Counted from the first letter of the stretch, positions 49,414-64,000 are shown. The stretch is 64,000 bases of DNA from Sorangiineae bacterium NIC37A_2 (GCA_002085155.1 NASX01000009.1:59323-123322); one strand, 5' to 3'. Translations and numbers: made by a program. Notes: generated from the sequence alone by a model not told the origin.

Positions 49414-49587
49414 CTGTCACTCCTTCCGTGGGGGGCGCCTGACCTGAATTGGCCGCGCAGTCCCCGACTTTCTTCATACTGAAGCCATCAGAAATGTCTT
49501 CCCCCGGACGCTCGTAGCTGATTGTTCGCTGGAGCGCATTCGAGAGCGACTTGGGCCCCCGGTTTGACAGCGGGGACCTTTGCGGTG

Positions 49588-50253
49588 ATGGGAGGGGGCG
49601 CCGTGGCGAACAAGCACTCGAACCCTTACATTGGTGACCCGCGGACTCGCGAGGCGAAGAAGAAGGGCTATCCGGCGCGCAGCGTCTTCAAGCTCGAAGA
49701 GATCCAGAACAAGACCCAGATCTTGAGGTCGGGCATGAAGGTCTTGGACCTCGGAGCCGCGCCCGGGTCCTGGACCCTGTTTGCGAGCCAAAAGGTGGGC
49801 CCTTCGGGCAAGGTGCTCGCTATCGACCTCCAAGAGATCACCCAGCGCTTCGCCCCGAACGTTGTGGTCGTCAGAGGTGATGCTTTTGAGATAGGGAGCG
49901 AAACCCTTGAGCAGTTTGCGCCCTACGACGTGGTCCTGTCTGATATGGCTCCGCGCACGAGCGGGGTGAAGCTCCGCGACCAGGCGATGAGCTTTGAGCT
50001 GTTCGAGAGGGCGCTCGATGTCGCTTTTCATTACGGCAAACCCGGCACTGCCTCGTTCGTGTGTAAGGTCTTCATGGGCCCCGATTTTCCGAAAGCGGTC
50101 GAGCTCGCGAAAAAGGTCTTCAAAAAGGTGCGCATCGTGCGTCCTGAAGGCATCCGCACGGGCAGCAAAGAAGTCTATTTGCTCGGCCTCGAGAAGAGGC
50201 CTTCCGAACCCGGGACCGCGGAAAACTTTCCCGAGCCGCCCGCGGCGGGTTAG
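49588..50253 (+). CDS. rlmE: 23S rRNA (uridine-2'-O)-methyltransferase RlmE/FtsJ
   Basis: KKKGYPARSVFKLEEIQNKTQILRSGMKVLDLGAAPGSWT...VVLSDMAPRTSG...FVCKVFMG. ATG 49588; the track start 49522 is less likely. Confidence 0.85.
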   Translation: MGGGAVANKHSNPYIGDPRTREAKKKGYPARSVFKLEEIQNKTQILRSGMKVLDLGAAPGSWTLFASQKVGPSGKVLAIDLQEITQRFAPNVVVVRGDAFEIGSETLEQFAPYDVVLSDMAPRTSGVKLRDQAMSFELFERALDVAFHYGKPGTASFVCKVFMGPDFPKAVELAKKVFKKVRIVRPEGIRTGSKEVYLLGLEKRPSEPGTAENFPEPPAAG

Positions 50254-50258
50254 GGCAA

Positions 50259-50280
50259 AAAGGAGCCTTCCTGCTCCTTT
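50259..50280 (+). terminator. Hairpin after rlmE
   Basis: AAAGGAGC (50259-50266) pairs with GCTCCTTT (50273-50280), an 8-bp stem with a 6-nt loop, 5 nt after the stop. Confidence 0.35.
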
Positions 50281-50288
50281 CTCCGCCC

Positions 50289-51941
50289 GTGTATCGCGAG
50301 TTTGGTCCTCCCCTGACCCGCCCGGGGTCTCAGCCCAGAGCGACAAAGCGCGCGCGGCGTTGGCCCTATGCGCTCCTCGCGGGAGCTTGCGCCTCCCTCT
50401 CTTCCCTTTCGCCTTACGGCCCCTGGGAGTCCGCCGTTCTTTCGGTCGAACTCGACCCGGCTCCAGCTCGTCCGGTTTCGCCCGAGGAGCCGCCTCGGGT
50501 CGCGGAGGAGCCGCCCCCGACTCCTGCGGCGCGCGTCGCTTCCCGGAGTTTGCTCGGACTCGCCGAGACCCCGAGCAAGGGGCCCCGTGAGCTCGACTCC
50601 TCGAGCAAACTGCCCACTTCGCCCGAGAGCGAACCTCGGCCCGAGGCCGATCTCTTCCTCGGCGTGACGGGCAAGGAAGCCAATATCCGCGCTCGCCCCG
50701 ATCCGAACGCCGAGGTCTTAGGCATGGCGCGCATGGGCACGCTGCTGCGCCGGGCGCCGACTCCTTCTGGCACAGTGAAATGTCCCGGAGGTTGGTACGC
50801 GGTGGCGCCACGCGGCTTTGCTTGCGCTGGCGCGTCGACGACCCTCGACCTCGACCACCCGGTCTTGCAGCTCGCGTCCTTAGAAGCCGACCGCTCGGAG
50901 CCTTTGCCCTATCGATACGGGCGCACGCGGGCGGCAGCTCCGCCTTTTTACACGAAGGTGCCGAGCCCTGAGGAACAGAGGGCGACAGAAGGGGCCACTT
51001 GGGGGGGCTCGAAACAGCTCGCGCGGCTGTGGGGAGACGATCCATTGGGCGCGCCGCCCCCGGCTCTCTTGGGGGGACAAACGATCCCCGGGCGACCGGC
51101 GGACAAGGTGGCGACGGGCTTCGGTCTGTCGCGGAGCGCCTTCGCGTTCCTCGACCTGTTTGAGAGTGAAGGTCGCCGCTTTGGTCTCACGACCGACTTT
51201 TCCGTCATTCCCCTCGACCGCGTCGAGCCGGTCGAGCCCTCGAGCTTCCGCGGGGTGGTCCTGACCGAAGAGGACACGCTCCCGCTCGCATTCGTGCGGA
51301 GCAGAAGCGTCTGGGTCTATCGACAGGACGAAAAGACAAAGGCGCTGGCTCCTCTGCGCATGGCCAAATTCCGCGAAGCGTTCCACCTCGAAGAGGAGGC
51401 TGAGACGATCGGCGGAGCTCGATTTTTCCGCACGAAGACCGGGGAGCTGCTCCGCGAGCAAAATGAGCTGATCGTCCTTCGAAATCCCGAGAAGATGCCC
51501 AAGTGGGCCTCAGGCTCGGCTCCCTGGCTCAGCGTATCGCTCCTTCGACAAACCCTCGTGGCGTTCCGCGGAGATCAGCCGGTATTTGCCACGCTCGTCT
51601 CCACGGGGGTCGGCGGCGCGGCGGATCCGTCCGAAACTCAAGCGACGGTCCAGGGCGTGTTCCGCATTCATACTAAACACATCACAAGGACGATGGCGGG
51701 TCCCGAAGCTGACGACCCCTACGACCTTCGCGACGTGCCTTACGTCCAATATTTCCACGAAGGGTACGCCTTGCACGCAGCGTTTTGGCATGACGGCTTT
51801 GGGCAACCGAAGAGCCACGGGTGCATCAATCTGTCTCCGAGTGACGCGCGCCACCTCTTCCACGTCACCGAACCCTTGGTCCCGTCCGGCTGGCATAGCG
51901 CTCTCTCTCGGCGCGGGACCATCATTTGGATTCACCCCTGA
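50289..51941 (+). CDS. L,D-transpeptidase (YkuD domain) with a long Pro-rich N-terminal region and an SH3-like segment
   Basis: The C-terminal catalytic motif is YVQYFHEGYALHAAFWHDGFGQPKSHGCINLSPSDARHLF. The N-terminus is TM/signal-like (WPYALLAGACASLSSL). Confidence 0.8.
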   Translation: MYREFGPPLTRPGSQPRATKRARRWPYALLAGACASLSSLSPYGPWESAVLSVELDPAPARPVSPEEPPRVAEEPPPTPAARVASRSLLGLAETPSKGPRELDSSSKLPTSPESEPRPEADLFLGVTGKEANIRARPDPNAEVLGMARMGTLLRRAPTPSGTVKCPGGWYAVAPRGFACAGASTTLDLDHPVLQLASLEADRSEPLPYRYGRTRAAAPPFYTKVPSPEEQRATEGATWGGSKQLARLWGDDPLGAPPPALLGGQTIPGRPADKVATGFGLSRSAFAFLDLFESEGRRFGLTTDFSVIPLDRVEPVEPSSFRGVVLTEEDTLPLAFVRSRSVWVYRQDEKTKALAPLRMAKFREAFHLEEEAETIGGARFFRTKTGELLREQNELIVLRNPEKMPKWASGSAPWLSVSLLRQTLVAFRGDQPVFATLVSTGVGGAADPSETQATVQGVFRIHTKHITRTMAGPEADDPYDLRDVPYVQYFHEGYALHAAFWHDGFGQPKSHGCINLSPSDARHLFHVTEPLVPSGWHSALSRRGTIIWIHP

Positions 51942-51994
51942 CAGCCCCCGAGGCGCGCGCCTTGGCTTCGGAGCGACTTCCGGTCTGACGTAAC

Positions 51995-52279
51995 TCAGGC
52001 CTGGGGCGTGTCTGACGACGGGAGCGGGGCGGGCGGAGTGTCCTCTGGCTCTTCCGAGGTAGGCGCGGGAGCAGACTCCTGGCTCGTCTCGGGTTCCTTC
52101 TCCGTCGCAGGGCGTGGCGAGACGGCCTCGAGCGCGAGCGGAACCCGGTCTGCGTCGGGCGAGCGCGGGTGCTCGTAGACCGGCGTCTTGTCGGGAGCTT
52201 GAGGGGCCGGCGGAGCGCACGCGACGGCGAGCCCAGCCAAGACGGACCAAAGCGTGAAGTGGGCAATGAAACTCCGCAT
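51995..52279 (-). CDS. Small Pro-rich secreted/lipoprotein (hypothetical)
   Basis: MRSFIAHFTLWSVLAGLAVACAPPAP (lipobox-like LAVAC), followed by a Pro/Glu/Thr-rich tail. Confidence 0.4.
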   Translation of the reverse strand: MRSFIAHFTLWSVLAGLAVACAPPAPQAPDKTPVYEHPRSPDADRVPLALEAVSPRPATEKEPETSQESAPAPTSEEPEDTPPAPLPSSDTPQA

Positions 52280-52396
52280 AGGCCCAAGGACATTACCTTG
52301 AAGGGGCCCCTTTCGGCGAGGGGCAGCGGCGAAGACGCGGCTTTTTGCTGGGCTTCGGGCTGGCGAGCGGTGCCTTTGGGAATATAGTGCGCCCCC

Positions 52397-53725
52397 GTGC
52401 GATACTCAGCGGTCTTTCAATGCTTCAGCGGATGCCCCGGCCAGTGGGCGGTGACCGAGCTCATGTACACGTGTCCAACGTGCGGCGGCCTGCTCGAGGT
52501 CGTGCATGACATGGACGCGCTCAAGGATAAGAGCGGCCCTGCTTGGACGAAGCTGTTCGACGAGCGCTACCGTGTGAACCAGTGGCCCTACGGCTCCGGC
52601 GTCTGGGGCAAGCGCGAGTGGGTGATGCCCTGCGTCTCAGATGATGAAATCGTGAGCATGTACGAGGGCGGCACGAACCTTTTTTGGGCGGACCGCTACG
52701 GCAAACAGCTGGGTTTGAACGATCTGTGGGTGAAGCTCTGCGGAAACAGCCATAGCGGCTCTTTCAAGGACTTGGGCATGACGGTGCTGGTCTCCGTCGT
52801 CCGCAAGGCGATCCGTGAGGGCAAGAAGATCAAGGCCGTCGCTTGCGCCTCGACGGGGGACACCTCGGCCGCTCTGGCAGCTTTCGGGGCTGCGGCGAAC
52901 CTGCCCGTGGTCGTTCTTCTCCCGCGCGGCAAGATTTCTACGGCGCAGTTGGTCCAGCCGATCGCTCACGGAGCGATGGTGCTCGGGCTCGATACTGACT
53001 TTGACGGTTGCATGGAAATCGTAAAGCGGCTGGCAGAGGAAGGGCTCGTCTACCTCGCCAACTCGATGAACCCCCTGCGCCTCGAAGGGCAGAAGACCGT
53101 GGGAATCGAGGTTGTTCAGCAGTTTGGCTGGGAGGTCCCCGATTGGGTCATCCTCCCGTCCGGAAACCTGGGCAACGCTTCGGCCCTCTATGCCGGCTTC
53201 AAGATGATGAAGGAGCTGGGCGTGATCGATCGGTATCCGCGGCTCGTCGTCGCTCAGGCCGAGAACGCGAACCCCCTCTATCGTGCCTTTGTCGCAGGTC
53301 AGAAGGAGGTCACGCCGATCGTGGCCAAGCCGACCCAGGCCACCGCGATCCAAATCGGCAACCCGGTTTCAGCTCCGCGGGCGCTCCGTGCCCTCGAGGC
53401 CATGAATGGACTGGTCGAGCAGGCGAGCGAGCAAGAACTCGCCGACGCTGCCGCTCGCGCCGACGCCACAGGCATGTACACCTGTCCCCATACAGCCGTG
53501 GGACTCGCGGTCTTGGAGAAGCTCCGAGCGAAGGGGACGATCCAAGAGGGGGATAAGGTGGTCTGCATCTCGACGGCCAACGGTCTCAAGTTCACCGAGT
53601 TCAAGGTGCGCTACCACGAAGGGCAGATCGAAGGCGTGAACTCGAACCTAAAAAACCCGGCCGTCCTGCTCCCCGCGGACTTCGGTCAGGTGGTCGACGC
53701 CATCTATAAGCGCTTCCCCTCCTGA
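52397..53725 (+). CDS. thrC: Threonine synthase
   Basis: It has the N-terminal Zn-ribbon-like [12 protein letters not shown], the PLP lysine motif [12 protein letters not shown], and [15 protein letters not shown]. Confidence 0.9.
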
Positions 53726-53736
53726 GGGGATCGGCT

Positions 53737-53759
53737 CGCTCTCCTCTCGAACGAGAGCG
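53737..53759 (+). terminator. Hairpin after thrC
   Basis: CGCTCTC (53737-53743) pairs with GAGAGCG (53753-53759), a 7-bp stem with a 9-nt loop. Confidence 0.35.
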
Positions 53760-53766
53760 TCCCAGC

Positions 53767-53801
53767 AAAAAAGCCTCGCCCATCCGAGAGAGGGCGAGGC
53801 T
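53767..53801 (-). terminator. Canonical intrinsic terminator for the minus-strand PEGA gene
   Basis: AGCCTCGCCC (53772-53781) pairs with GGGCGAGGCT (53792-53801), a 10-bp stem with a 10-nt loop. On the minus strand the hairpin is followed by TTTTTT (A-run 53767-53772). Confidence 0.6.
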
Positions 53802-53827
53802 TGCAGCATTGTGGAGAGGTTTTCGGC

Positions 53828-54940
53828 TCAGAAAGCCATCCGCGCCACGGCGCCGCCCCCGAGCGGTCCGCCGTAGGGGGCAACCACGACCCGACCCGGA
53901 GCGCGCCGAGCGGCCTTGGCGGCCGGAACTTCGTCGTCTTTGGCGGTCAAGAGGACCACGCCGGTGATGCCGAGCGTGAGCGCGACGCCGAAGGACATGT
54001 CCGAGATGAGCGCGTTGCGCTCTACTTCGTCCGCGAGCTCCGCCGTCGGGCCTTTGTCGTATTTGCTCTTGGCGTCGAGGGCGAGGATGCCGAACACGGT
54101 CCCGCTGATGAGTCCGGCGGCGCCGATGCCGAGGGTGACGTAAGCGGGGACCATGCTCCGCTCTTTCTTCGGGGCGGGCTCTTGGCCGAGCGCCGCCGCG
54201 TCGGTCGTCGGTACCGCGACCTGCTTCTGCAGCTCGATCGGGGCGCGCACATGGCTGCCGGCGACGGCGTCGATTTCGACGAGGGATACCTCATAACCGG
54301 AGGCGCGGAGCTCGAGCCGATGGGTCCCGGCGGGAAGCTCGATTTCGACCGGGGTCTTTCCAGCGATGAGCGCGCCGTCGACGTAAACCTCAGCGCCCGC
54401 TGGGGTGCTTTCGATGAGGACCGTGGCTGGCAGAGTCGCCTTGAGCTCACTGGCTCGCTTCTTCGCAGTCTCGACCGCCTCTTCGCCCACGTGGATAGCA
54501 GCCGGGTTCGTCAAGAAGAGCTCATAGGCTCGAACGACTTCTTTGGCCGGCTTGTTCGCCTTGTCCATCGAAGCGGCGATCCAATACTCCGCGTGAGGGG
54601 AGGGGATCTTCTCGTGGGCGATGCGGAACTCGGACTCCGCCTTGATGTAGTCGGCATCGGCGTAGGCCTGTGCGCCGGCTTCGAAAGCAGATTTCGCGAG
54701 CTCGATATCTTCAGCGCTCGGTGACGCGGGCGCGACCGGGGTCACGGTCCTTGCCGTGTCGCCCTCTGACGCTGTGGCCTTCGGCTCTTCTCCGCTCCGC
54801 TGAGACTCCCCCGAGGTAACCGTTTGGGGGGCGCCTGTGGAGGTGGTTTCCGCACAGAGGTCACCCAAGAAAAGCGTCGTCACGAGTCCGACGGCCGAGA
54901 GAGACGGCCAAGCGGCCTTCCAGAGTTTTCGTTCTTTCAT
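53828..54940 (-). CDS. PEGA-domain envelope protein with an N-terminal TPR-like segment and C-terminal TM helices
   Basis: It has a signal peptide. The PEGA motif is VLIESTPAGAEVYVDGALIAGKTPVEIELPAGTHRLELRASGYE. The two hydrophobic helices are AYVTLGIGAAGLISGTVFGILAL and FGVALTLGITGVVLL. Confidence 0.7.
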   Translation of the reverse strand: MKERKLWKAAWPSLSAVGLVTTLFLGDLCAETTSTGAPQTVTSGESQRSGEEPKATASEGDTARTVTPVAPASPSAEDIELAKSAFEAGAQAYADADYIKAESEFRIAHEKIPSPHAEYWIAASMDKANKPAKEVVRAYELFLTNPAAIHVGEEAVETAKKRASELKATLPATVLIESTPAGAEVYVDGALIAGKTPVEIELPAGTHRLELRASGYEVSLVEIDAVAGSHVRAPIELQKQVAVPTTDAAALGQEPAPKKERSMVPAYVTLGIGAAGLISGTVFGILALDAKSKYDKGPTAELADEVERNALISDMSFGVALTLGITGVVLLTAKDDEVPAAKAARRAPGRVVVAPYGGPLGGGAVARMAF

Positions 54941-55077
54941 GTGTGCATGCTCCAGACCCCGGCTGTCGGGTCGCGCAAGTTCCTCGAAGGCTAGAGTCGA
55001 TCACTCGGAAAACAAGCCTAACTCCGCTATGATCCTTCCGAAAGCGGGGATCTTCACGAGCCCGCCCACTGCTTGCC

Positions 55078-58000
55078 ATGGAAGTGTCACAGAAGGAAGG
55101 GTCGACCCGGCCGCGTCGCTCGAGACCTGCGCCGAGTCCTGACCCGCTCGACTCGGGGTTTCCGGCGTTCGCTGACCGGTACGATCTCGAGATCCAACGC
55201 TTCATTGGTAAGAGCGCACCCCTCGCGACCCTCTCCGCACAACTCCAGGCCGCGCGGCGCGCAGGAGACCCCACGCGCATCGCCGACGTCCTGGAGCGAC
55301 TTGCTCATCACCTCACGAAGCTTGGCATCGAACCGGGCCTCGCGGCGACGGCGCTCGAAGAGGCGCGAGCCGTGGGCAAACGCGACATCCTCCCGATGCT
55401 CATTGATGCTTGGCACCGGGCCGGAGATGCGGAGCGGGCGCTCGAGTACTTTGGCGCCTGGGTCGCTGAGTTCGAAGGCGGAGTGAGTGAAGAGTTTGTT
55501 CGGGACGCGCTGGCGTTCTTGATGAGAGGAGCTGACCTCGCGGCGCACCTCGGCGATCCACAACAGGCCCGTCGCGCGCTCACGCTCGCTGACGATTTGG
55601 CCCTGCGCCAGCCGACGCTCCGAGCAGAGATCCAGCGCAAGCTGGGCGCGATCGGCTTTTGGACGGGCGATCTCGACGTCGGAGCCAGCGCGTACCTTTT
55701 GGCCGCGGAGCTCGGAGAGCTCGCTGGCTCCGGCGAGGCGCCGCTCGAAGATGCTCGGCGCGCTTTTGAGCTCACTCCGAGCCGGCGTGATGTTGCCGAG
55801 AACGTCGCGCGAAGGTTCAGCACGCGCGGTCGCATGGCGGCCGCCGATGCGGTTCGACGGCTCTCAGTGAAACACGGCGGCGCGGCCGATCGCGCGACTT
55901 ACCATGGGCGGCGCTTTCAAGCAGCGCTCCGCGCGAAGAATTGGGGAGAGGCGCTCGGCGCGGCGCTCGAAGCGGGTCTCGATATTGAGCTCGACCTCGA
56001 ACGGACGCGCGAGGTGCTCGCACAGCCTCCTTTGGTCCCGACCGACTTTGAGAGTTTTCTGCTCGCACTTGCGCAAGGCGTGTGGCTTCCGGAGACGGAG
56101 CCCTTCGCCCAGTGGCTGCTCGGCTTGATGGAGGCGCACGCTTGCCTCTGGGGTGAAGCGGAGGCTCATGGCCTTCGCTCCCGGGCGATTCAGCTGCTCG
56201 CCCTCGACCGACCGACGTCGGTGACTCCTCCAATCTCCGAGCCGCGAGCTCGCGCTCTCAGACAGCGTCTCGCCGAGGATATCTCCCCAGAGGAGGCTAC
56301 GCGCCTGCGCGATGAGATTGCGCGGAGTGAGCTGCAGCGAAGGAATTTCGAGGCGGCCTTTGAGGTGCTCGAACCGAACCTTGAAAAGGACTGTCCGGGC
56401 GCCCTCCAAGCCGCCATCGATTTGTTCATCGTGAGTCGTGTGGGGGAACGCGGGCGGGTGCGTGCTCTCTCTCGCTTGGCTCGGACGCTACCAGCCTCGG
56501 CGCGCACGGAGGTGCTCGCGGTCGCGTCATTGACCGCCGTGCTCTCGGGGGAGGGTCCTCTTGCCTATCGTTTGGCCGAGCAGGCTCTCACAGGCGATCC
56601 TGGCTCAGAGCGGGCTGTCGTCGCTATGTCTGAGGTCGCGACGACCTACCCCGCATTGGTCCCCGCGCGCTTCATTGAGGCGACCTTGGCGGAAGCTGTC
56701 ACGACCGCCGAAAAGTGCTTGATCCTTTCGCGTGCGGCCGAGGAGCGGGGAGCGCTGATGCTCTCGCTCACTTGGGCTGAGCAGGCGCGCAACCTTCGTC
56801 CCGCGGATCCCGAAGCACATCGGGTCGTCTTGGGACTGGCCCAACGCGCCGAGGATGCAGCGCGGCTGGCCGACGCGATTCAGACGGTCGCTCGTGCCTT
56901 CGTCCCGCACGACCGGATCGCCGATGCCATTGAGTCGGCGCTCATCGCTCTATCGGAGCTCGACGAAGAGCGAGCTATTGGTACTGGAGAAGAGGTTCTC
57001 TCCCATTCAGGACACATCGAAGCCCTGCGCAGCGCGGTGATCCATGTCGCCGAGAAAGCGCACGCGCCCCTTCTGCTCGCTCGGGCGCTCGACCTCTCGC
57101 TCGCGAGCCGCGTTGCCGGCGACGTAGGCCTGCTCCTCTCAAAGCTGGCTCGCGCTCGCGCAGAAGCGGGCGATCTGGCTGCGGGGCTCCGCGCATGGTT
57201 CCGTTACATCGCCGAGCACGGCGGAGACCCGGAGCTTCCGGAATTCCTCGCGGCGAGCGGTGCGGTCGACGACAGCCAAGCTGATGCGGAGTTGTATCGA
57301 ACGGAGGTGGAGGTGCTCATCCGCCGTCGGAAGGGCGAGCTCAAAGCCGAGGAGCTCTTCCGCCTTGCGGTACTGCGCTGGGATTTGGCGAAGGATACCG
57401 ACGGAGCGTTCGAAGCGCTCCTGTCTGCCGCCCGACTCGTGCGCGACGACGGCTACGGGCTCATGTTCCACTATCTCCTCCGCTTGGCGGGCGCCACGAC
57501 CGCCGCTGAGCTCCTCGAAGCACGAGCTGCCTTAGAGGACGACGCCGAACGTGCGGGGACATTGCTTGGGCTCGCGAGTCGGGGGCGCCTGCTCTCGGGC
57601 GAACGGGCGCGGGCGTTCCAGCTCGCGCAAAAGGCGCTGCAGCGGAACTCCCATCAGCCGGAGCTCTTGCTGCTCGCGGAGCGCACTCTGGCTACCGGAG
57701 AGCTGGATCGATTGGAGGCTCTCTATGACCACGTGGCGGACAACGCCTATGGCCGCTTCGGCGAGCGAGCGGTTCGTTATCGTGCGGCGCGACTTCTCGA
57801 GCGACGAGGCGGGATCGAACGCGCGTTCCGTCACGCGCAACAAGCCTTTGAAGCGGCCCCCGATGAAGGTGTCACGTTCATCCTCTTCTCGCGGATGGCG
57901 AGCGCGCTCGGAAAGTCGGAGCTGATCCCGGATGTGATCGATGCTTCGCTCAGCCGCGTGCGAGATGCGCGCACCCGAGAGCGCCTGAAGAGGAGGCGCG

Positions 58001-61000
58001 ACGCGCTCCGCGCAAACGGTCAAAAACCAGGACTCGGGCAGGCTGAGGTTTTGTTCCGGGCGATGGCGCTGTCTTACACGCCTGAACTCGGTCAGGACCT
58101 CGAGAAGGTTCTCTCTGCGCTCCTCAGTCAGGAGGAGTCTCGTGAGCAGGCGCTCGAATGGACGAAAGAAAAGGCCCCCGAACTGCTCATCGCGCTGAGC
58201 GGCCCTGACCGAACTCGCGCCGCGATCCACCTCACACGGATCGCACTTCAGCACTTTCCGGACGATGAGTTTGCGTTCTTCTGCTTGGGCCGCGCCGTTT
58301 CGGGGAGCCTCCAGGAGGCGGAGTATGAGTCTCTGCTCGAGTTCAAGGATCGTCTGGGGACGCACAAGCAAGAGCTGCTCGAGCTCTGGGGACGGATCAA
58401 ATCCATGAGTGACTCCGGTGAGCTCTTGGGTAGTCCGCTTGCGATCGTGCTCGCCGAGAGCATGGCCATCGCTGAGTTATCCTCGGAAGCCGCCGAAGTC
58501 CTCGTTCACGCCGCGTCCGATACTCCCGATGACGTGCGTGTGAGCCAGCGCGCGCGGGAGCTCGCCGAACAATCTGGGCGCTTGGACCTAGTTCCCGCGA
58601 TTGAAGGGCTCTTGCCGGCTCCGCTTTGGGTCCGATCGATCTTGGACCGAATCGACAGCCTCCCGGATGAAGAAGCCGTGAACGCTCTCGTCGAGGTGGA
58701 TCTCTCCACGGCTCCTCCCGAGCTCAGGGCAGAGGCCCTTGAAGCGCTCGCGCGCCGGGAAGAGAGGCTCTCGAGGTTTGCGGACGCCCGCGACACTTGG
58801 CAAGAGCTCCTGGAGCTCGACCCGAAGAACCTCGCAGCGCTCATGGGGCTCGAACGAGCAGCGGATCGCGACGATGACCACGAGGCCCTCCTCGAGATTC
58901 TGACGCGCCGAGCTCAGCTGGCGTCGGATCCTGACGCGGAACGGACGATTCACTTGCGCCGCGCGGCGGTCCTCGAGACGCACCTGGGACGGCCCCTCGA
59001 AGCGCGCCAGCTCCTCGAAGAGCTGCTCGAGCGACAAGGCGACACCTGGTCGGTGCTTCGACTCTTGGCCGACTCCTTCGAGCGCACCAGTGAACATGCG
59101 CGAGCGGCGGAGCTTTGGTCGAGGGCGCAGGCGGTGGCTGTCGACGTGGAAGCGGCGGCCGATGCGTGTTTTCGGGCGGCCCGCGCCTATTTTGAGGCTG
59201 GCGATCTATGGCGCGCCCAGGACTCCCTTCGTTATGTCGATATGGGGAGGGTAGATTGCGTCGAGCTGGGCTTGAAGGTGCATCGCGCACTTGGCGATCA
59301 GGCAGCGGTGATGGATGCGCTTACGGTCGCGGCGCGCATGAAGCGCGACGATCGTGAGTTCGTTACCAAGGCGCTCCTCGAGGCCGCCGAGATCGCGATG
59401 AAACTCGACGCTCCGGATGTGGCGGAAGGACACGCGCGGGACGCGATTCGTCTCGGCACGGACTCTCCGGAGGCTCGCCTCCTCTTGGCTCAGCTGATCG
59501 CCCGCAGAGCTCGGCCGCTGGAGAAAGCCGACGCGGAGGAGATCGCTTCTTTGCTTCCGGGGACCGAATCACTCCGTGGCGCGCAGCAGCGAGAGGTTCG
59601 TGCTTACCTGCTCGCCATCGTCGACGAGCGTCTGCGGGGAGGCGAGGCCTGCCGAGCGGATTTGCGAGCAGCGATCGCGTCCCAAGGGCCCCGTCCCCTC
59701 CTCGCCGCGGCACTTGCGCGTCGCTTAGACGACGATCCGGAGGAGGCTTTGAAGCTCTACGAGTCGGCGATGGGCGGGGAGTTTGCGGGGCTCATGAGTC
59801 GTTCCGACGTGGTCGTCGAGGCGGCTTCGCTCGCCCGCGACACCGGGCAGTTCGCTCGCGCTCAGGCTTTTCTCTCGGCGATTGCGGATTCGGAGCTGCC
59901 GCGAGGCAAGGTGGAGGAGATGCTCGAAGGGATCCGCGCTTCGCGCTCGCGCGCCGAGGAGTTCGATTCGAAGAATTGGCGCGCCTGGGCCCAGGCGCCG
60001 CGAGGGGTGTCAGACGAAGCTCGAGCTCGGGCGCTCAAAGAAGCGCGCGAAGCGGAGAATCTGGCGCGCAGTCAGGCGGCCCGCGAGGAGCGGGTGTTCT
60101 CGCCTCCTTCGGAGCCGAGCCCCAGCGAGGCAGGGAGCAGAGAGCCGTCCCATCACCCGACCTCGGACGCGAGCGCGCTCGAAATTGCAGAAGAGGCGGA
60201 GCTCGTGCGGGCCTTCGAGGAGGGGGACATCGAGGCGGGCCAGTCCCTCTTCGACATCTACATGAGCGACCGCGCCCGCAGTCGGGACGCTGTGCTCGTC
60301 GCGATGCACCTCGTCGATAAGGCCCCTTGGGATCCTGACGCGCTGAGTTGCCTCGCGACGGCGGCGAGTCGAGATGGGAGCGAAGCGGTAGCGCTCGCTT
60401 GTCGCCACTTGCTCGCTGCTTTCGGTGAGGGAGAGCCGGTTCAGCCAGTGGACCTCGCGCTCCTTGTCGGGCAGCCCGACGCGGCCAGCGCCGTGATCTT
60501 CCGGGGGGCGATGACTCCGTCGGCGGAGGCGCTCCGCATCGTTTGGGAGCATGCTGGAGGCCTGTTCCGCCGTGACCTCGCCGACTATGAGGTCGATCCT
60601 GCGGCCCGCGTGTCCCCTTCTGAGCCGGGACCGCTCCCAGAGGCGTACCGGGGGGCGAGCCGCGTGCTGGGCGTGCGCTCGCCGCTTTATGCGCGTCCAG
60701 ATGGGGAGGACATTGCGATCTCCGTCCTTGTGACGATACCGCCGTCGATCCTCGTCGACGGTGCCGTTGACGCTGTGAGCGACGAGTTCCGCTTCCACCT
60801 CGGGGCGATGCTCATGGCCACCGCTCCCGAGTTCGTCCTGTTGCTCGGGAGTCAGCCGGAAGAGGCGAAACTCCTCCTCGATGCCATCTGTCAGGCCTTT
60901 GGTCCGAGTGAGCGGAGCTCCACACAAGACCCAAAGGTGGTGGAGCTATCGGCTCGTCTCTGGGAGCTGATCCCAGCCCGCGCCCAGCGTCGTCTCAACC

Positions 61001-61266
61001 AGCTTTGCGCGGATCCGAACGCCATGAACCTGGATCTGGCCTTCGCCAACGCGACCATCGTGCTTCGGCGCGCGGGGCTCCTCGTGAGCGGCGACATTCG
61101 CACGGCGATTTCAGAGGTTTGTGCCGCCCACCAGCTGGAGAGCCCGACGAACTGGGAGGAGCTTGCCGAGGTGGCGCGCGCGTTGCCGGAGGTCGTTGAC
61201 CTCTTGTTGCTCGCGGTCTCTCTCGAGTACGCGGAGCTGAGGTTCCGTCCGGTTCCGGGGATCTGA
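55078..61266 (+). CDS. Giant (2062 aa) all-helical TPR/HEAT-like repeat protein with a distinct C-terminal ~360-aa domain; function unknown
   Basis: It is a single uninterrupted ORF with strong third-position GC bias. Its composition is dominated by A/L/E/R, with many TPR-like units (e.g. GRPLEARQLLEELLERQGDTWSVLRLLADSFERTSEHARAAELWSRA). I found no HExxH, Walker or other catalytic motif. An acidic/Ser-Pro linker near residue ~1660 precedes the C-terminal domain. Confidence 0.7.
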   Translation: MEVSQKEGSTRPRRSRPAPSPDPLDSGFPAFADRYDLEIQRFIGKSAPLATLSAQLQAARRAGDPTRIADVLERLAHHLTKLGIEPGLAATALEEARAVGKRDILPMLIDAWHRAGDAERALEYFGAWVAEFEGGVSEEFVRDALAFLMRGADLAAHLGDPQQARRALTLADDLALRQPTLRAEIQRKLGAIGFWTGDLDVGASAYLLAAELGELAGSGEAPLEDARRAFELTPSRRDVAENVARRFSTRGRMAAADAVRRLSVKHGGAADRATYHGRRFQAALRAKNWGEALGAALEAGLDIELDLERTREVLAQPPLVPTDFESFLLALAQGVWLPETEPFAQWLLGLMEAHACLWGEAEAHGLRSRAIQLLALDRPTSVTPPISEPRARALRQRLAEDISPEEATRLRDEIARSELQRRNFEAAFEVLEPNLEKDCPGALQAAIDLFIVSRVGERGRVRALSRLARTLPASARTEVLAVASLTAVLSGEGPLAYRLAEQALTGDPGSERAVVAMSEVATTYPALVPARFIEATLAEAVTTAEKCLILSRAAEERGALMLSLTWAEQARNLRPADPEAHRVVLGLAQRAEDAARLADAIQTVARAFVPHDRIADAIESALIALSELDEERAIGTGEEVLSHSGHIEALRSAVIHVAEKAHAPLLLARALDLSLASRVAGDVGLLLSKLARARAEAGDLAAGLRAWFRYIAEHGGDPELPEFLAASGAVDDSQADAELYRTEVEVLIRRRKGELKAEELFRLAVLRWDLAKDTDGAFEALLSAARLVRDDGYGLMFHYLLRLAGATTAAELLEARAALEDDAERAGTLLGLASRGRLLSGERARAFQLAQKALQRNSHQPELLLLAERTLATGELDRLEALYDHVADNAYGRFGERAVRYRAARLLERRGGIERAFRHAQQAFEAAPDEGVTFILFSRMASALGKSELIPDVIDASLSRVRDARTRERLKRRRDALRANGQKPGLGQAEVLFRAMALSYTPELGQDLEKVLSALLSQEESREQALEWTKEKAPELLIALSGPDRTRAAIHLTRIALQHFPDDEFAFFCLGRAVSGSLQEAEYESLLEFKDRLGTHKQELLELWGRIKSMSDSGELLGSPLAIVLAESMAIAELSSEAAEVLVHAASDTPDDVRVSQRARELAEQSGRLDLVPAIEGLLPAPLWVRSILDRIDSLPDEEAVNALVEVDLSTAPPELRAEALEALARREERLSRFADARDTWQELLELDPKNLAALMGLERAADRDDDHEALLEILTRRAQLASDPDAERTIHLRRAAVLETHLGRPLEARQLLEELLERQGDTWSVLRLLADSFERTSEHARAAELWSRAQAVAVDVEAAADACFRAARAYFEAGDLWRAQDSLRYVDMGRVDCVELGLKVHRALGDQAAVMDALTVAARMKRDDREFVTKALLEAAEIAMKLDAPDVAEGHARDAIRLGTDSPEARLLLAQLIARRARPLEKADAEEIASLLPGTESLRGAQQREVRAYLLAIVDERLRGGEACRADLRAAIASQGPRPLLAAALARRLDDDPEEALKLYESAMGGEFAGLMSRSDVVVEAASLARDTGQFARAQAFLSAIADSELPRGKVEEMLEGIRASRSRAEEFDSKNWRAWAQAPRGVSDEARARALKEAREAENLARSQAAREERVFSPPSEPSPSEAGSREPSHHPTSDASALEIAEEAELVRAFEEGDIEAGQSLFDIYMSDRARSRDAVLVAMHLVDKAPWDPDALSCLATAASRDGSEAVALACRHLLAAFGEGEPVQPVDLALLVGQPDAASAVIFRGAMTPSAEALRIVWEHAGGLFRRDLADYEVDPAARVSPSEPGPLPEAYRGASRVLGVRSPLYARPDGEDIAISVLVTIPPSILVDGAVDAVSDEFRFHLGAMLMATAPEFVLLLGSQPEEAKLLLDAICQAFGPSERSSTQDPKVVELSARLWELIPARAQRRLNQLCADPNAMNLDLAFANATIVLRRAGLLVSGDIRTAISEVCAAHQLESPTNWEELAEVARALPEVVDLLLLAVSLEYAELRFRPVPGI

Positions 61267-61288
61267 GGCCGACACGGGAAGGAGCAGT

Positions 61289-63166
61289 GTGACAAGGATG
61301 TCAGTCCAAAAGGCCTCCCGCGCGCGCAGGGCTCGGGCGATTGGAGTCTGGCATATCCGTTGCTACGAACGGAGCGTGACTCCTCTGCAGAGGCTCCAGC
61401 GATGTGCCCAAAGGGCAGGAGTTCTCGCGGCTTTGCTTCTGATTCCGGATTGCGCCGCCCCCGAGCGTGACAGCGGGCTCGCCAACCTGGAGCCGCTCTG
61501 CCGGGCAAACCGCGACTGTCCATCGGACGCCGAGTGTGTTCGCAGTCGCTGCGTGAGTCGGCAGACCGAGTCGGTCCCCCTGCTGGTCGAGGTCATTGCG
61601 CCCGCGGGGACCCCGGGGCTCGCCGGTGTCGCGATCGCTCAAGAGGTCCAGTTCGCGAGTCGGGAGTTCGACATCCATCTCGGCTACTCGAGTGCCGCCG
61701 TGGTGCACCTCAAGAGCGAGCCAGTTGTCGACGATGCATGCTTGGCTCGCCTCTCGTCGCAAGAGCAAAGTGAGGAGGATCCGGTCCCGCCGTCGGCGCG
61801 GGTGACTTTTTTCCCGCGGAAACGACAGCTCAGCCTCACCGACGCGGCCCGGGTCGTGACGACGACGACTCCCTCTTTGGACGATGTCTCGCTCTCGATC
61901 ACGCTGGTTCCGGGCAAGTACGATCTTTATGTCGAGCCCCTTGAGCACGATGGAGAGTGTCTTCGACCCCCCGAGCTCTTTCTGGACCAGGAGGTGACGG
62001 CGAGTGATGTGAGTCTGAGCATCCAGCTCGGCGCCCCCCAGCGCTACGATGCTCGGGTTCGCTTTCCCGCTTCGGAGGGCTCTCTCGAAGGTTGGCGATT
62101 GGATCTGGTCGATCCCGACTCCGGTCTGGCCCTGTCGAGCGGCGCTGTCCTCTCGGATCCACGCGAGGCCGAAGGAACTCTCGAGTACGACGCCTCCGTC
62201 GTCTTTGTCCCGGTCCACTCGGGGACCCCGCGCACGGAGATGGTGCGCCTGACGCCCCCCGAGGGCGTAACGGCCCCGACCCTGCTCGTGGCGCGTGGGG
62301 TCACGGAGCTCTTCCAGTCCGATCCGGCGATTGTCGATCAGCTCACCTCCCTGCCGAAGACTGTCACCCTGAGCGGGCGCGTCGTCCTGAAAGGGACCCT
62401 GGACGGCGTGGAGGCTGGCTTGACCTTCGTCCTCGAAAGTTTGTCGGGGCTCGCCGAGGGCACCTCGGTCTCCTTCTCACGGGAAGTGCGGACCGGCACG
62501 GACGGGACCTTCGAGGCTTCGCTCCTGCCGGGCACCTATCGCGTCGTGACGCAGCCCGCCTCCGATCAACTCGCCCAGTCCGAGGAGAAGTTCTCCGTTT
62601 CCGGGGGAACTCCGAGCCAGGCCGGCCGCACCATTGAAATCGCCGAACGCCGCAGCATCCAAGGGCGCCTGTTCGACTTCCGCGGCAATCCCGTCGCGAA
62701 GGCGCAGGTCGATCTCGTCCCGGTGCCTACCTTCCATCGCGGCGGTCTCGCGCTCTCGGCCTCGGCGGTTCGTTTCGTTCCGAGCGGCCTCGCTGGGGAG
62801 ACCGAGTCGGACGGCCGATTCAGGCTCCTCGCAGACCCGGGACGCTTCGATATCGTGGCGCGGAACGTCACCAAAGATGCCGATTTTTCCTGGGCTTTTC
62901 GCCTGGGCGTCACGGTCGGAGACGGGGACGTGGTCCTCGGGGATCTAACGGAACGGCCGCCCCTTTTGGTTCACGGGAGCGTGAGCGCCGAGCAGACGGG
63001 GCCGCTTCCGTCAGCGCTCATCCGCGCTTATGCCTATGTGAAGGCAGGGGAAGTCAGCACGCCCGACGCGGCGGAGTACGTCCTTTTGGTGGGAGAGACG
63101 CGGGCGAACGCCGACGGCGACTATCAGCTTCTCCTCCCGGCCGATCTCGCGGCCACCGACGATTGA
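61289..63166 (+). CDS. Secreted/anchored protein with a Cys-rich N-terminal motif and several carboxypeptidase-regulatory-like beta-sandwich repeats
   Basis: It starts 22 nt after the giant ORF, and GGAAGGAG precedes GTG 61289. It has the hydrophobic anchor AGVLAALLLIPDCAAP and the Cys-rich CRANRDCPSDAECVRSRC. Repeated units of the type GRVVLKG...GTYRVVTQP and IQGRLFDFRGNPVAKAQVDLVP...GRFDIVAR follow. Confidence 0.55.
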   Translation: MTRMSVQKASRARRARAIGVWHIRCYERSVTPLQRLQRCAQRAGVLAALLLIPDCAAPERDSGLANLEPLCRANRDCPSDAECVRSRCVSRQTESVPLLVEVIAPAGTPGLAGVAIAQEVQFASREFDIHLGYSSAAVVHLKSEPVVDDACLARLSSQEQSEEDPVPPSARVTFFPRKRQLSLTDAARVVTTTTPSLDDVSLSITLVPGKYDLYVEPLEHDGECLRPPELFLDQEVTASDVSLSIQLGAPQRYDARVRFPASEGSLEGWRLDLVDPDSGLALSSGAVLSDPREAEGTLEYDASVVFVPVHSGTPRTEMVRLTPPEGVTAPTLLVARGVTELFQSDPAIVDQLTSLPKTVTLSGRVVLKGTLDGVEAGLTFVLESLSGLAEGTSVSFSREVRTGTDGTFEASLLPGTYRVVTQPASDQLAQSEEKFSVSGGTPSQAGRTIEIAERRSIQGRLFDFRGNPVAKAQVDLVPVPTFHRGGLALSASAVRFVPSGLAGETESDGRFRLLADPGRFDIVARNVTKDADFSWAFRLGVTVGDGDVVLGDLTERPPLLVHGSVSAEQTGPLPSALIRAYAYVKAGEVSTPDAAEYVLLVGETRANADGDYQLLLPADLAATDD

Positions 63167-63359
63167 GGCGCTCTCAGCTCGGACGAGAGAGCCCGGGCGT
63201 GCAGTGACAGAAGATCGGTGAGTGCGCCCATCGGGAGCCTCTCACAATGCACCAGATCAAGTCACAGTGGAAACCATGAGGAATCCCGGGGAAAAGACGT
63301 TCCTCTTCCCCTTTGCGCGCTAGTCTGCAAGCAGCAGTCGGGGTAATGTAAGGCGCCGC

Positions 63360-64000
63360 GTGCGCCTCGTGACCTCAGCCCCCAAGTGTCCCTCTTCTAC
63401 GGACTCGGAGTCCGCGGAGAGGTATTCTTGCGCGCTGCACGAAGTTTCCAATGCGCTCACCGTCATCTTGGGATGGTTAGAGCTTGCAGAGAACAGTGAC
63501 TCCCGCGCCGATCTGAAGCGAGCGCTCGAGGTCGCTCGTGAGCATGCTCAGCGTGGTCAGGTGATTGCGCGACGGGCGATCGGTTCGAGCGTTGAGTCCC
63601 AGCAGGGTGGCAGGAGCGCTCAATCCATCGGGAGCTTCGCGGCGGTGTCGGTGGAACCGTCGGCGCGCGCGAAGCGCGTGAAGATTGACGTGAAGTCCGG
63701 CGCGGGGACGGAGGCGAGTCTCGATGGAGAAGCCGCCGTACTTCAGATCCTGACGAATCTTCTACTCAACGCGATCGCGTTCTCGCCAGACGACGGGATC
63801 ATCTCCCTCGAGATCCTGCGCCAAGGTGACGCGGTCCGGTTCATTGTCACGGATCAGGGACCTGGCGTGCCGCCTGCGCTGCGCGACAGCTTGTTCACGT
63901 CGCGCGCTTCGCTGCGCCCCGGCGGGGCCGGAATTGGCCTGCCCCATTCGCGGGCTCTCGCCTCTGAACACGGAGGAAGTCTTGAGCTGCTTCCATCGAA
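63360..64000 (+). CDS. Histidine kinase, DHp + HATPase_c only (3' end outside the window)
   Basis: It is not in the ORF track because the frame runs off the window. The frame opens after TAG 63321-63323, with GTG 63360 or 63369 as possible starts. The H-box is ALHEVSNALTVILGWLELA, the N-box is ILTNLLLNAIAFS, G1 is TDQGPGVP and G2 is GGAGIGLPHSRAL. Confidence 0.75.
   Translation, partial: MRLVTSAPKCPSSTDSESAERYSCALHEVSNALTVILGWLELAENSDSRADLKRALEVAREHAQRGQVIARRAIGSSVESQQGGRSAQSIGSFAAVSVEPSARAKRVKIDVKSGAGTEASLDGEAAVLQILTNLLLNAIAFSPDDGIISLEILRQGDAVRFIVTDQGPGVPPALRDSLFTSRASLRPGGAGIGLPHSRALASEHGGSLELLPS

Follow-up and report, generated by a model that had tools for sequence, protein, structure and literature searches.

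A conserved Polyangiaceae gene module predicted to combine a giant GltI-related cytoplasmic scaffold, a β-sandwich lipoprotein and a sensor-less hybrid kinase

Genes and proteins of the locus

We analyzed a stretch of 64,000 nucleotides (nt) from Sorangiineae bacterium NIC37A_2 (GCA_002085155.1, NASX01000009.1:59323-123322), hereafter called the window, which corresponds to positions 59323-123322 of contig C70 of the host genome. The subject of this work is a group of 4 genes at its 3' end, centered on an open reading frame (ORF) for a very large protein of 2062 amino acids (aa) (55078..61266, + strand). Translation and phylogenetic analysis assign this protein, referred to here as the giant, to the helical-repeat proteins and place it as a predicted cytoplasmic paralog of scaffolds of the GltI/AgmK type. 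The stop codon of the giant gene is separated by 22 nt from an ORF encoding an exported lipoprotein of 625 aa, which starts at a GTG at position 61289 (61289..63166, + strand; an ATG at 61298 is an alternative start) and is preceded by the ribosome-binding-site-like sequence GGAAGGAG. After a gap of 194 nt follows the ORF of a sensor-less hybrid histidine kinase, of which the first part lies in the window (63360..64000, + strand) and the 3' part beyond it. In the opposite direction, a 370-aa PEGA envelope protein is encoded upstream of the giant gene (53828..54940, - strand), and both promoters are presumed to lie in the 137-bp divergent intergenic region (54941..55077). An earlier interpretation made from the DNA without database searches (the sequence-only reading) had called these 4 ORFs, and all of them were recovered with the same positions and spacings. 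Full-length homologs of the giant exist at 30-71% identity, and relatives keep the gene order; judged from these comparisons, the ORFs are real genes and not chance open frames. A sigma-70-like consensus was not found in the 137-bp region by a scan that is uninformative for a GC-rich lineage.

The giant is rich in Ala, Leu, Arg and Glu and is net acidic. Reading its sequence for hydrophobicity detected neither a signal peptide nor a convincing transmembrane (TM) segment, and the protein is likely cytoplasmic. Searches against Pfam returned only matches to tetratricopeptide repeats (TPR), all of them sub-threshold and located at aa 1218-1351, and an NCBIfam scan of the module proteins added nothing specific. 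This agrees with the earlier statement that the giant carries no recognizable enzymatic motif. By BLASTP, a block of the giant at aa 1099-1424 (58372..59349, + strand) matched the repeat region of a 3504-aa GltI-like giant encoded elsewhere in the same genome (best E 1e-8) and also the repeat region of a Lujinxingia giant. This block is the sole stretch of the protein that is still similar to GltI-type TPR modules. Direct reading of the sequence confirmed the presence of an acidic linker rich in Ser and Pro (aa ~1660-1700; 60055..60177, + strand), after which the C-terminal domain, or tail, begins.

The 625-aa protein had been described in the sequence-only reading as a product with a membrane anchor or signal, a cysteine knot and several β-sandwich units. 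Its export was upheld and could be specified further: a hydrophobic stretch is followed by the lipobox L-I-P-D-C55 (C55 codon, 61451-61453), the Cys of which is invariant in 22 orthologs. Because this lipobox Cys is conserved, the protein is classified as a lipoprotein on the basis of its sequence. The cysteine knot is present as a C-x5-C-x5-C-x4-C motif formed by C71, C77, C83 and C88; in a comparison of 6 orthologs C71, C77 and C88 never vary, and in one of 22 orthologs the same holds for all four Cys. The AlphaFold2 (AF2) model, computed from the 22 orthologs, is all-β with a predicted local distance difference test score (pLDDT) of 82, and comprises 5 or more tandem β-sandwich domains. The β-sandwich assignment is corroborated by a match to Pfam CarboxypepD_reg (PF13620) of 32.5 bits (cut-off 32.3) and by Foldseek, which aligned the model with multi-domain CnaB/Ig-like pilins of Gram-positive bacteria (E 3e-10). 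Like these stalk proteins (pilins BcpA, SpaA and RrgB, and the TIE protein of B. anthracis; Foldseek E 3e-10 to 1e-5) and like CarboxypepD_reg repeats, the 625-aa protein appears as a string of β-sandwiches. However, unlike the pilins it is a lipoprotein of a Gram-negative bacterium; it carries a four-Cys motif near its N-terminus and has neither sortase nor pilin motifs. TM-scores to the pilins are low (0.1-0.2) because the type of domain is shared and the overall arrangement is not. The model and the sequence together suggest an exported lipoprotein stalk of β-sandwich domains that is likely periplasmic.

The divergently encoded protein contains a PEGA domain (PF08308) at aa 173-239 that scores 51 bits against a cut-off of 20.8. 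Its sequence reads as a signal peptide at the N-terminus, followed by a short helical region of TPR-like character, the PEGA β-sandwich, two TM helices near the C-terminus (aa ~268-290 and 311-334) and a 35-aa tail, and most of the protein is likely periplasmic. The Pfam match, the strand and the predicted segments are thus those of the PEGA/TPR envelope protein that had been proposed to lie divergently upstream of the giant gene.

The kinase gene was read on in contigs C70 and C134 and stops about 470 nt past the end of the window, which gives a protein of 369 aa. The part encoded in the window matches HATPase_c with 56.7 bits and HisKA weakly. The full-length protein scores 63 bits with HATPase_c, 20 bits with HisKA, which is below the Pfam threshold, and 21.6 bits with Response_reg, which is under the cut-off of 30.2 yet covers positions 1-110 of the 111 in the profile. 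In 25 orthologs, the H-box (ALHEVSNALTVxLGWL, with His27 encoded at 63438-63440), the N, G1 and G2 boxes, and the DD, DLSP, SG and KPF residues of the receiver are kept. Because of this C-terminal receiver-like domain with its conserved residues, the protein is considered a hybrid kinase with a DHp-ATPase-receiver architecture, and not one consisting only of DHp and ATPase domains as had been supposed. The absence of a sensor domain was correctly predicted, since only about 25 residues precede the H-box and these are not conserved in the 25 orthologs. The kinase is likely soluble and cytoplasmic. It resembles known sensor-less hybrid kinases and phosphorelay nodes in keeping the DHp, ATPase and receiver (DD, D, S/T, K) residues, but differs from them in the sub-Pfam scores of its HisKA and receiver domains and in the fixed position of its gene after those of the giant and the lipoprotein.

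The assembly around the kinase gene bears on how the module is counted and delimited. Contig C134 (108-15070) repeats the final 15 kb of C70 (108863-123825) as its reverse complement, at 100% identity and with 107 extra bases. It covers window positions 49541-64000 and beyond and was judged to be assembly redundancy, so that each gene of the module is counted twice in genome-wide searches. In addition, the ends of C70 and C9 (C9:189867-190145, reverse) overlap by 196 nt at 99.5% identity, plus an extra 83-nt repeat copy. The genes of C9 past this join are a convergent SWIM/SNF2 helicase gene, a gene for a 619-aa protein, two ExbD genes and one ExbB gene, and the same set is located 3' of the kinase gene in the close relative at locus L003. 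This supports the join, and the two contigs are almost certainly adjacent; the predicted operon accordingly ends at the kinase gene.

The tail domain and the relationship to GltI

The tail of the giant (aa 1701-2062; 60178..61263, + strand) was analyzed by AF2 modelling, profile searches and hhalign. The AF2 model (pLDDT 93.8) is compact, with helices arranged around a three-stranded sheet. No Pfam match was obtained for this domain, and four paralogous tails likewise gave nothing beyond weak TPR matches with Pfam and NCBIfam. Neither the single sequence nor a profile matched any PDB sequence, and in a Foldseek search of the model against the PDB the best E was 0.6, with peptidases appearing only at E 2-4. 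The sequence-only reading had held that this domain resembles nothing known. However, a profile built from 20 tails matched 959 representatives of clusters at 50% identity, of which 412 fell below 1e-30, and in all 150 of the 150 matches listed the domain was at the C-terminus. Among 401 sampled genomes of the phylum, 109 contained a tail match, always at the end of an open frame of 1600-4200 aa; the default HMMER filters missed distant tail matches in this neighbourhood scan, and these were recovered with --max. When the tail class of the window (query, A1 or a 69-sequence alignment) was compared by hhalign with 121 tails from giants of 3300-4200 aa, the two aligned over 338-341 columns with a probability of 98.7% and an E of 1.4e-16. 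This indicates, at the level of profiles, that the tail of the giant is homologous to that of the GltI-like giants and belongs to a large domain family that it has in common with them. The resemblance to the giant TPR proteins of myxobacterial motility complexes, which the sequence-only reading had noted, thus reflects real homology through the tail domain.

The giants of 3300-4200 aa form a class rich in canonical TPR modules, which we equate with GltI from their size, their neighbours and the literature. In Myxococcus xanthus, GltI/AgmK is a cytoplasmic TPR protein of 3822/4132 aa that belongs to the gltD-J cluster, and a 4156-aa giant of this class in Lujinxingia adjoins a GltG-like gene (NF033760, 287 bits). 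The host of the window also encodes such a protein. On its contig C63 (76086-97934; loci L100, L107 and L108), a Glt-like gliding cluster in a single orientation comprises genes for a GltC-like protein (247 bits), a 1234-aa protein of the size of GltD, a GltE-like protein, a GltG-like protein (300 bits), a 323-aa TPR protein and the 3504-aa GltI-like giant. The GltC-, GltE- and GltG-like genes and that for the 1234-aa protein precede the gene of the giant. The genes of the cluster score under the NCBIfam equivalog cut-offs; the gliding models are nonetheless their best matches. With a profile of the GltI-class tail, the 3504-aa giant gave an E of 6e-132, versus 2e-6 for the giant of the window. 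In a FastTree phylogeny of 146 tail domains, rooted only at the midpoint, the class of the window and its order-level orthologs formed a clade of 84 with a support of 1.0, apart from the GltI-like clade that includes the host's own 3504-aa giant. Because the host genome has its own Glt-like cluster with a GltI-like giant elsewhere, the giant of the window is best understood as a separate, diverged paralog of GltI and not as its ortholog.

Comparison with GltI/AgmK (MXAN_4863) of the Agl-Glt gliding (focal adhesion) machine of M. xanthus shows what the two proteins would share and where they part. Both are giant all-helical repeat proteins of Myxococcota, read as cytoplasmic and devoid of a signal peptide, with a homologous non-TPR domain at the C-terminus, and the giant of the window retains a residual block of GltI-type repeats. 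In contrast, it is half as long (2062 versus 3500-4200 aa), does not have canonical TPR modules in an array of 3300-4200 aa, and has repeats most of which cannot be recognized as TPR. It branches in a separate clade and is not encoded with gltG, gltJ, gltD/E or other glt genes; its neighbours are the genes for the PEGA protein, the lipoprotein, the kinase, a PALP enzyme and the SNF2 helicase, and of these the PEGA protein, the β-sandwich lipoprotein and the hybrid kinase are kept as conserved neighbours. Other tail-bearing proteins were observed as well. The host encodes two more, of 1811 aa (C136:63905-69337) and 2051 aa (C148:22959-29111), and a class of 1700-1800 aa co-occurs with a GltI-like giant in genomes of Bradymonadaceae. 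In a distant genome of the phylum (L099:679-3993), a tail-bearing giant of 2893 aa is followed 4 nt on by a 1105-aa protein with a C-terminal PilZ domain, which binds cyclic di-GMP.

The motif E-L-x-F-x-L-G-A-x-L-A, which follows the three strands of the tail, prompted a test for a degenerate zincin. The comparison alignment of M48 zinc metallopeptidases was made from 17 genes of related genomes. The tail of the GltI class aligned with it at a probability of 80.7% and an E of 1.3e-5 (unrelated controls, 0.1-0.3%). The alignment with this family, which includes HtpX, Ste24 and BepA, covers the sheet together with the active-site helix and, further downstream, the E-x-x-A-D helix, with the HExxH and E-x-x-A-D helices in register and the metal ligands replaced. 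BepA is composed of an M48 domain and a TPR domain, an arrangement that the combination of TPR and an M48-like domain recalls. The AF2 model of the tail of the window shows three strands and then the corresponding helix, which reads F-H-L-G-A-M-L-M-A and has no conserved His/Glu pair. The HExxH motif is absent: its position is occupied by G-A-x-L-A in the clade of the giant and by A-K-x-L-x in the GltI class, and the third-ligand Glu is likewise missing from the clade of the window. The invariant residues of the tail are Gly, Ala, Leu, Phe, Trp and Arg, with no set of His, Glu, Asp or Cys. Unlike the M48 enzymes, which are periplasmic or membrane-bound, the tail is predicted to be cytoplasmic, and its class compared directly with M48 gave no signal with profiles (E 0.5) and no Foldseek match. 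Because it is the GltI class and not the class of the window that aligns with M48, a pseudo-peptidase origin of the tail is plausible by transitivity rather than established.

Conservation of the module in Polyangiaceae

Searches based on shared words identified 93 homologs of the giant of about 2000-2600 aa. Those with a name belong to Polyangiaceae or Polyangia, in addition to the cultured species Pendulispora albinea. In the loci of relatives, which were obtained by three routes, the order PEGA gene (- strand), giant, where present a small lipoprotein, lipoprotein and kinase is seen again in about 18 different Polyangiaceae genomes from many genera (loci L003-L006, L038, L040, L042, L043, L045, L046, L048, L051, L053, L055, L060-L064 and L069). 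A profile search found the large lipoprotein as a single copy in 56 of 60 sampled Polyangiaceae genera; the 4 misses are two incomplete genomes and two small genomes that are also devoid of the giant. In every one of the 13 genomes common to both samples, the lipoprotein gene is located at most 2.5 kb from the region encoding the tail of the giant. The locus of P. albinea contains the giant, a small lipoprotein and the large lipoprotein. Outside the Polyangiaceae loci, a lipoprotein partner was not detected, except for one weak CarboxypepD_reg protein in L073. The sequence-only reading had considered that the genes might prove not to be co-conserved; since the order is kept in about 18 genomes and the lipoprotein stays next to the giant, this can be dismissed, and gene order identifies the 4 genes as a module kept across the family Polyangiaceae.

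In most relatives, a gene for a small lipoprotein of about 180-216 aa, with C-I-V-A-D-P-P after the lipobox, is present between the giant and the large lipoprotein (for example L005:17452-18102 and L007:16945-17481, and about 45 other loci). The only homolog in the host is encoded at C9:99011-99610 (L111:9039-9614; E 1e-30), immediately behind a gene weakly assigned to the Omp85 superfamily, with LysM and peptidase genes close by.

Several genes in the vicinity were also considered. Upstream of the PEGA gene, the window encodes a 550-aa protein with a YkuD L,D-transpeptidase domain (50289-51941) and a 442-aa pyridoxal phosphate-dependent enzyme of the PALP family (52397-53725). Both genes are upstream also in L003, and the PALP gene alone in L005, which is probably plain synteny. 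In Pendulispora, the module is followed by a gene for a TerB-domain protein (L007:19434-19982); such a gene is also found directly after the giant's ortholog in another family of the order (L078:11599-12564). The ExbB and ExbD proteins encoded on C9 were evaluated as a motor of the module and rejected, as their genes are beyond the convergent SNF2 helicase gene and are syntenic in close relatives only. FHA proteins encoded at 33-38 kb of the window were similarly rejected as GltG-like partners, as they are not kept near the giant in relatives.

Proposed function and alternatives

We read the locus, with a probability of about 0.55, as a module formed by a predicted operon for a GltI-paralogous cytoplasmic scaffold, a β-sandwich lipoprotein and a sensor-less hybrid kinase, together with the divergent PEGA gene, and separate from the gliding cluster of the host. 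By analogy with GltI, the giant would probably act as a cytoplasmic platform that gathers partners under the inner membrane. The kinase, which has no input domain of its own, would probably be recruited to this platform or controlled by it, and would pass phosphate via its own receiver. The periplasmic side of the same process would probably be formed by the PEGA protein together with the lipoprotein or lipoproteins, and the module as a whole probably serves a function related to the envelope or the surface other than that of the Glt-like gliding cluster.

A number of observations weigh against this proposal. The link among the 4 products is one of gene order. None of the module proteins combines a sizeable cytoplasmic domain with a periplasmic one in a way that could couple the two sides, and the PEGA protein offers only a cytoplasmic loop of about 25 aa. 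In three Polyangiaceae loci (L065, L066 and L068), the giant and the lipoprotein are kept and the kinase and PEGA genes were not found nearby. Beyond Polyangiaceae and Pendulispora, orthologs of the giant adjoin genes for TerB, PilZ and phosphoesterase proteins. In the subclade of the window, the giant gene and the large lipoprotein gene have no small lipoprotein gene between them. Finally, the assignment of the 3300-4200-aa class to GltI is drawn from size, gene neighbourhood and the literature. The single trans-envelope machine of 4 products that the sequence-only reading had envisaged thus comes down to gene order, as a protein linking cytoplasm and periplasm was not identified among them.

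The same observations bear on the possibility that the genes are neighbours by inheritance only, in which case the giant and the kinase would be a cytoplasmic signalling pair and the lipoprotein(s) and the PEGA protein unrelated envelope proteins. This would be consistent with the lack of an identified coupling protein, with the persistence of the giant-lipoprotein pair in Pendulispora and the three Polyangiaceae loci, where the kinase and PEGA genes are missing, and with the relocation of the small lipoprotein gene in the host genome, where the rest of the module is retained. However, the adjacency of giant and lipoprotein is the most conserved feature of the locus, kept across at least 56 genera and in Pendulispora, and the two genes often overlap or are closely spaced. 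Persistence of this kind over protein identities of 30-40% usually reflects functional coupling, and we regard mere co-inheritance as rather unlikely, if still a serious competitor of the scaffold module. An extended version of the module seems to us quite improbable: a second envelope apparatus of the GltI type, independent of Agl-Glt, in which a scaffold with a pseudo-peptidase tail would cluster the PEGA and lipoprotein units and control a dedicated phosphorelay. If true, it would be a new kind of scaffold-organized trans-envelope machine for adhesion, motility or signalling.

Alternatively, the giant could be the GltI ortholog of the Polyangiaceae and its cluster a part of the Agl-Glt gliding machine. 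The homologous tail and the GltI-type repeats at aa 1099-1424 would fit, as would the gltI homologs reported in Sorangium by Luciano et al. (PMC3169522). This is largely ruled out by the comparisons above and appears very improbable: the host's 3504-aa giant resides in the GltC/E/G-like cluster and is by far the better match to the GltI-class tail, the giant of the window falls in a clade of its own, and no Glt gene is among its conserved neighbours. Enzymatic activity of the tail, such as that of a peptidase delivered or regulated by the giant, is hardly credible in spite of the alignment of the GltI-class tail with M48, because the invariant residues of the tail are structural or Arg, the HExxH position is replaced in both classes, and neither profiles nor Foldseek relate the clade of the window to a peptidase above noise.

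We therefore return to the reading of the locus as a scaffold module. Within the known GltI-like scaffolds, the giant would define a new and diverged family of paralogs, and no description of its conserved set of partners was found in the literature searched. Among the components of the myxobacterial gliding machine, GltI is the one least understood, and in a structural model published in 2025 its tail domain is mentioned only in passing (PMC11761067). Beyond the question of tail and scaffold, the locus would be a lineage-specific module with a function that we infer from its composition. The GltI-type tail defines a large domain family, which at 50% identity falls into about 960 clusters; a single genome encodes several old paralogs, every one in a neighbourhood of its own. 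This suggests that giant scaffolds may be a general organizing device in Myxococcota and not a peculiarity of gliding. The Polyangiaceae module would be a compact and well-conserved case of such a device, in which a scaffold, a kinase and exported partners are encoded together, and it occurs in cultivable organisms, namely those with large Polyangiaceae genomes and Pendulispora.

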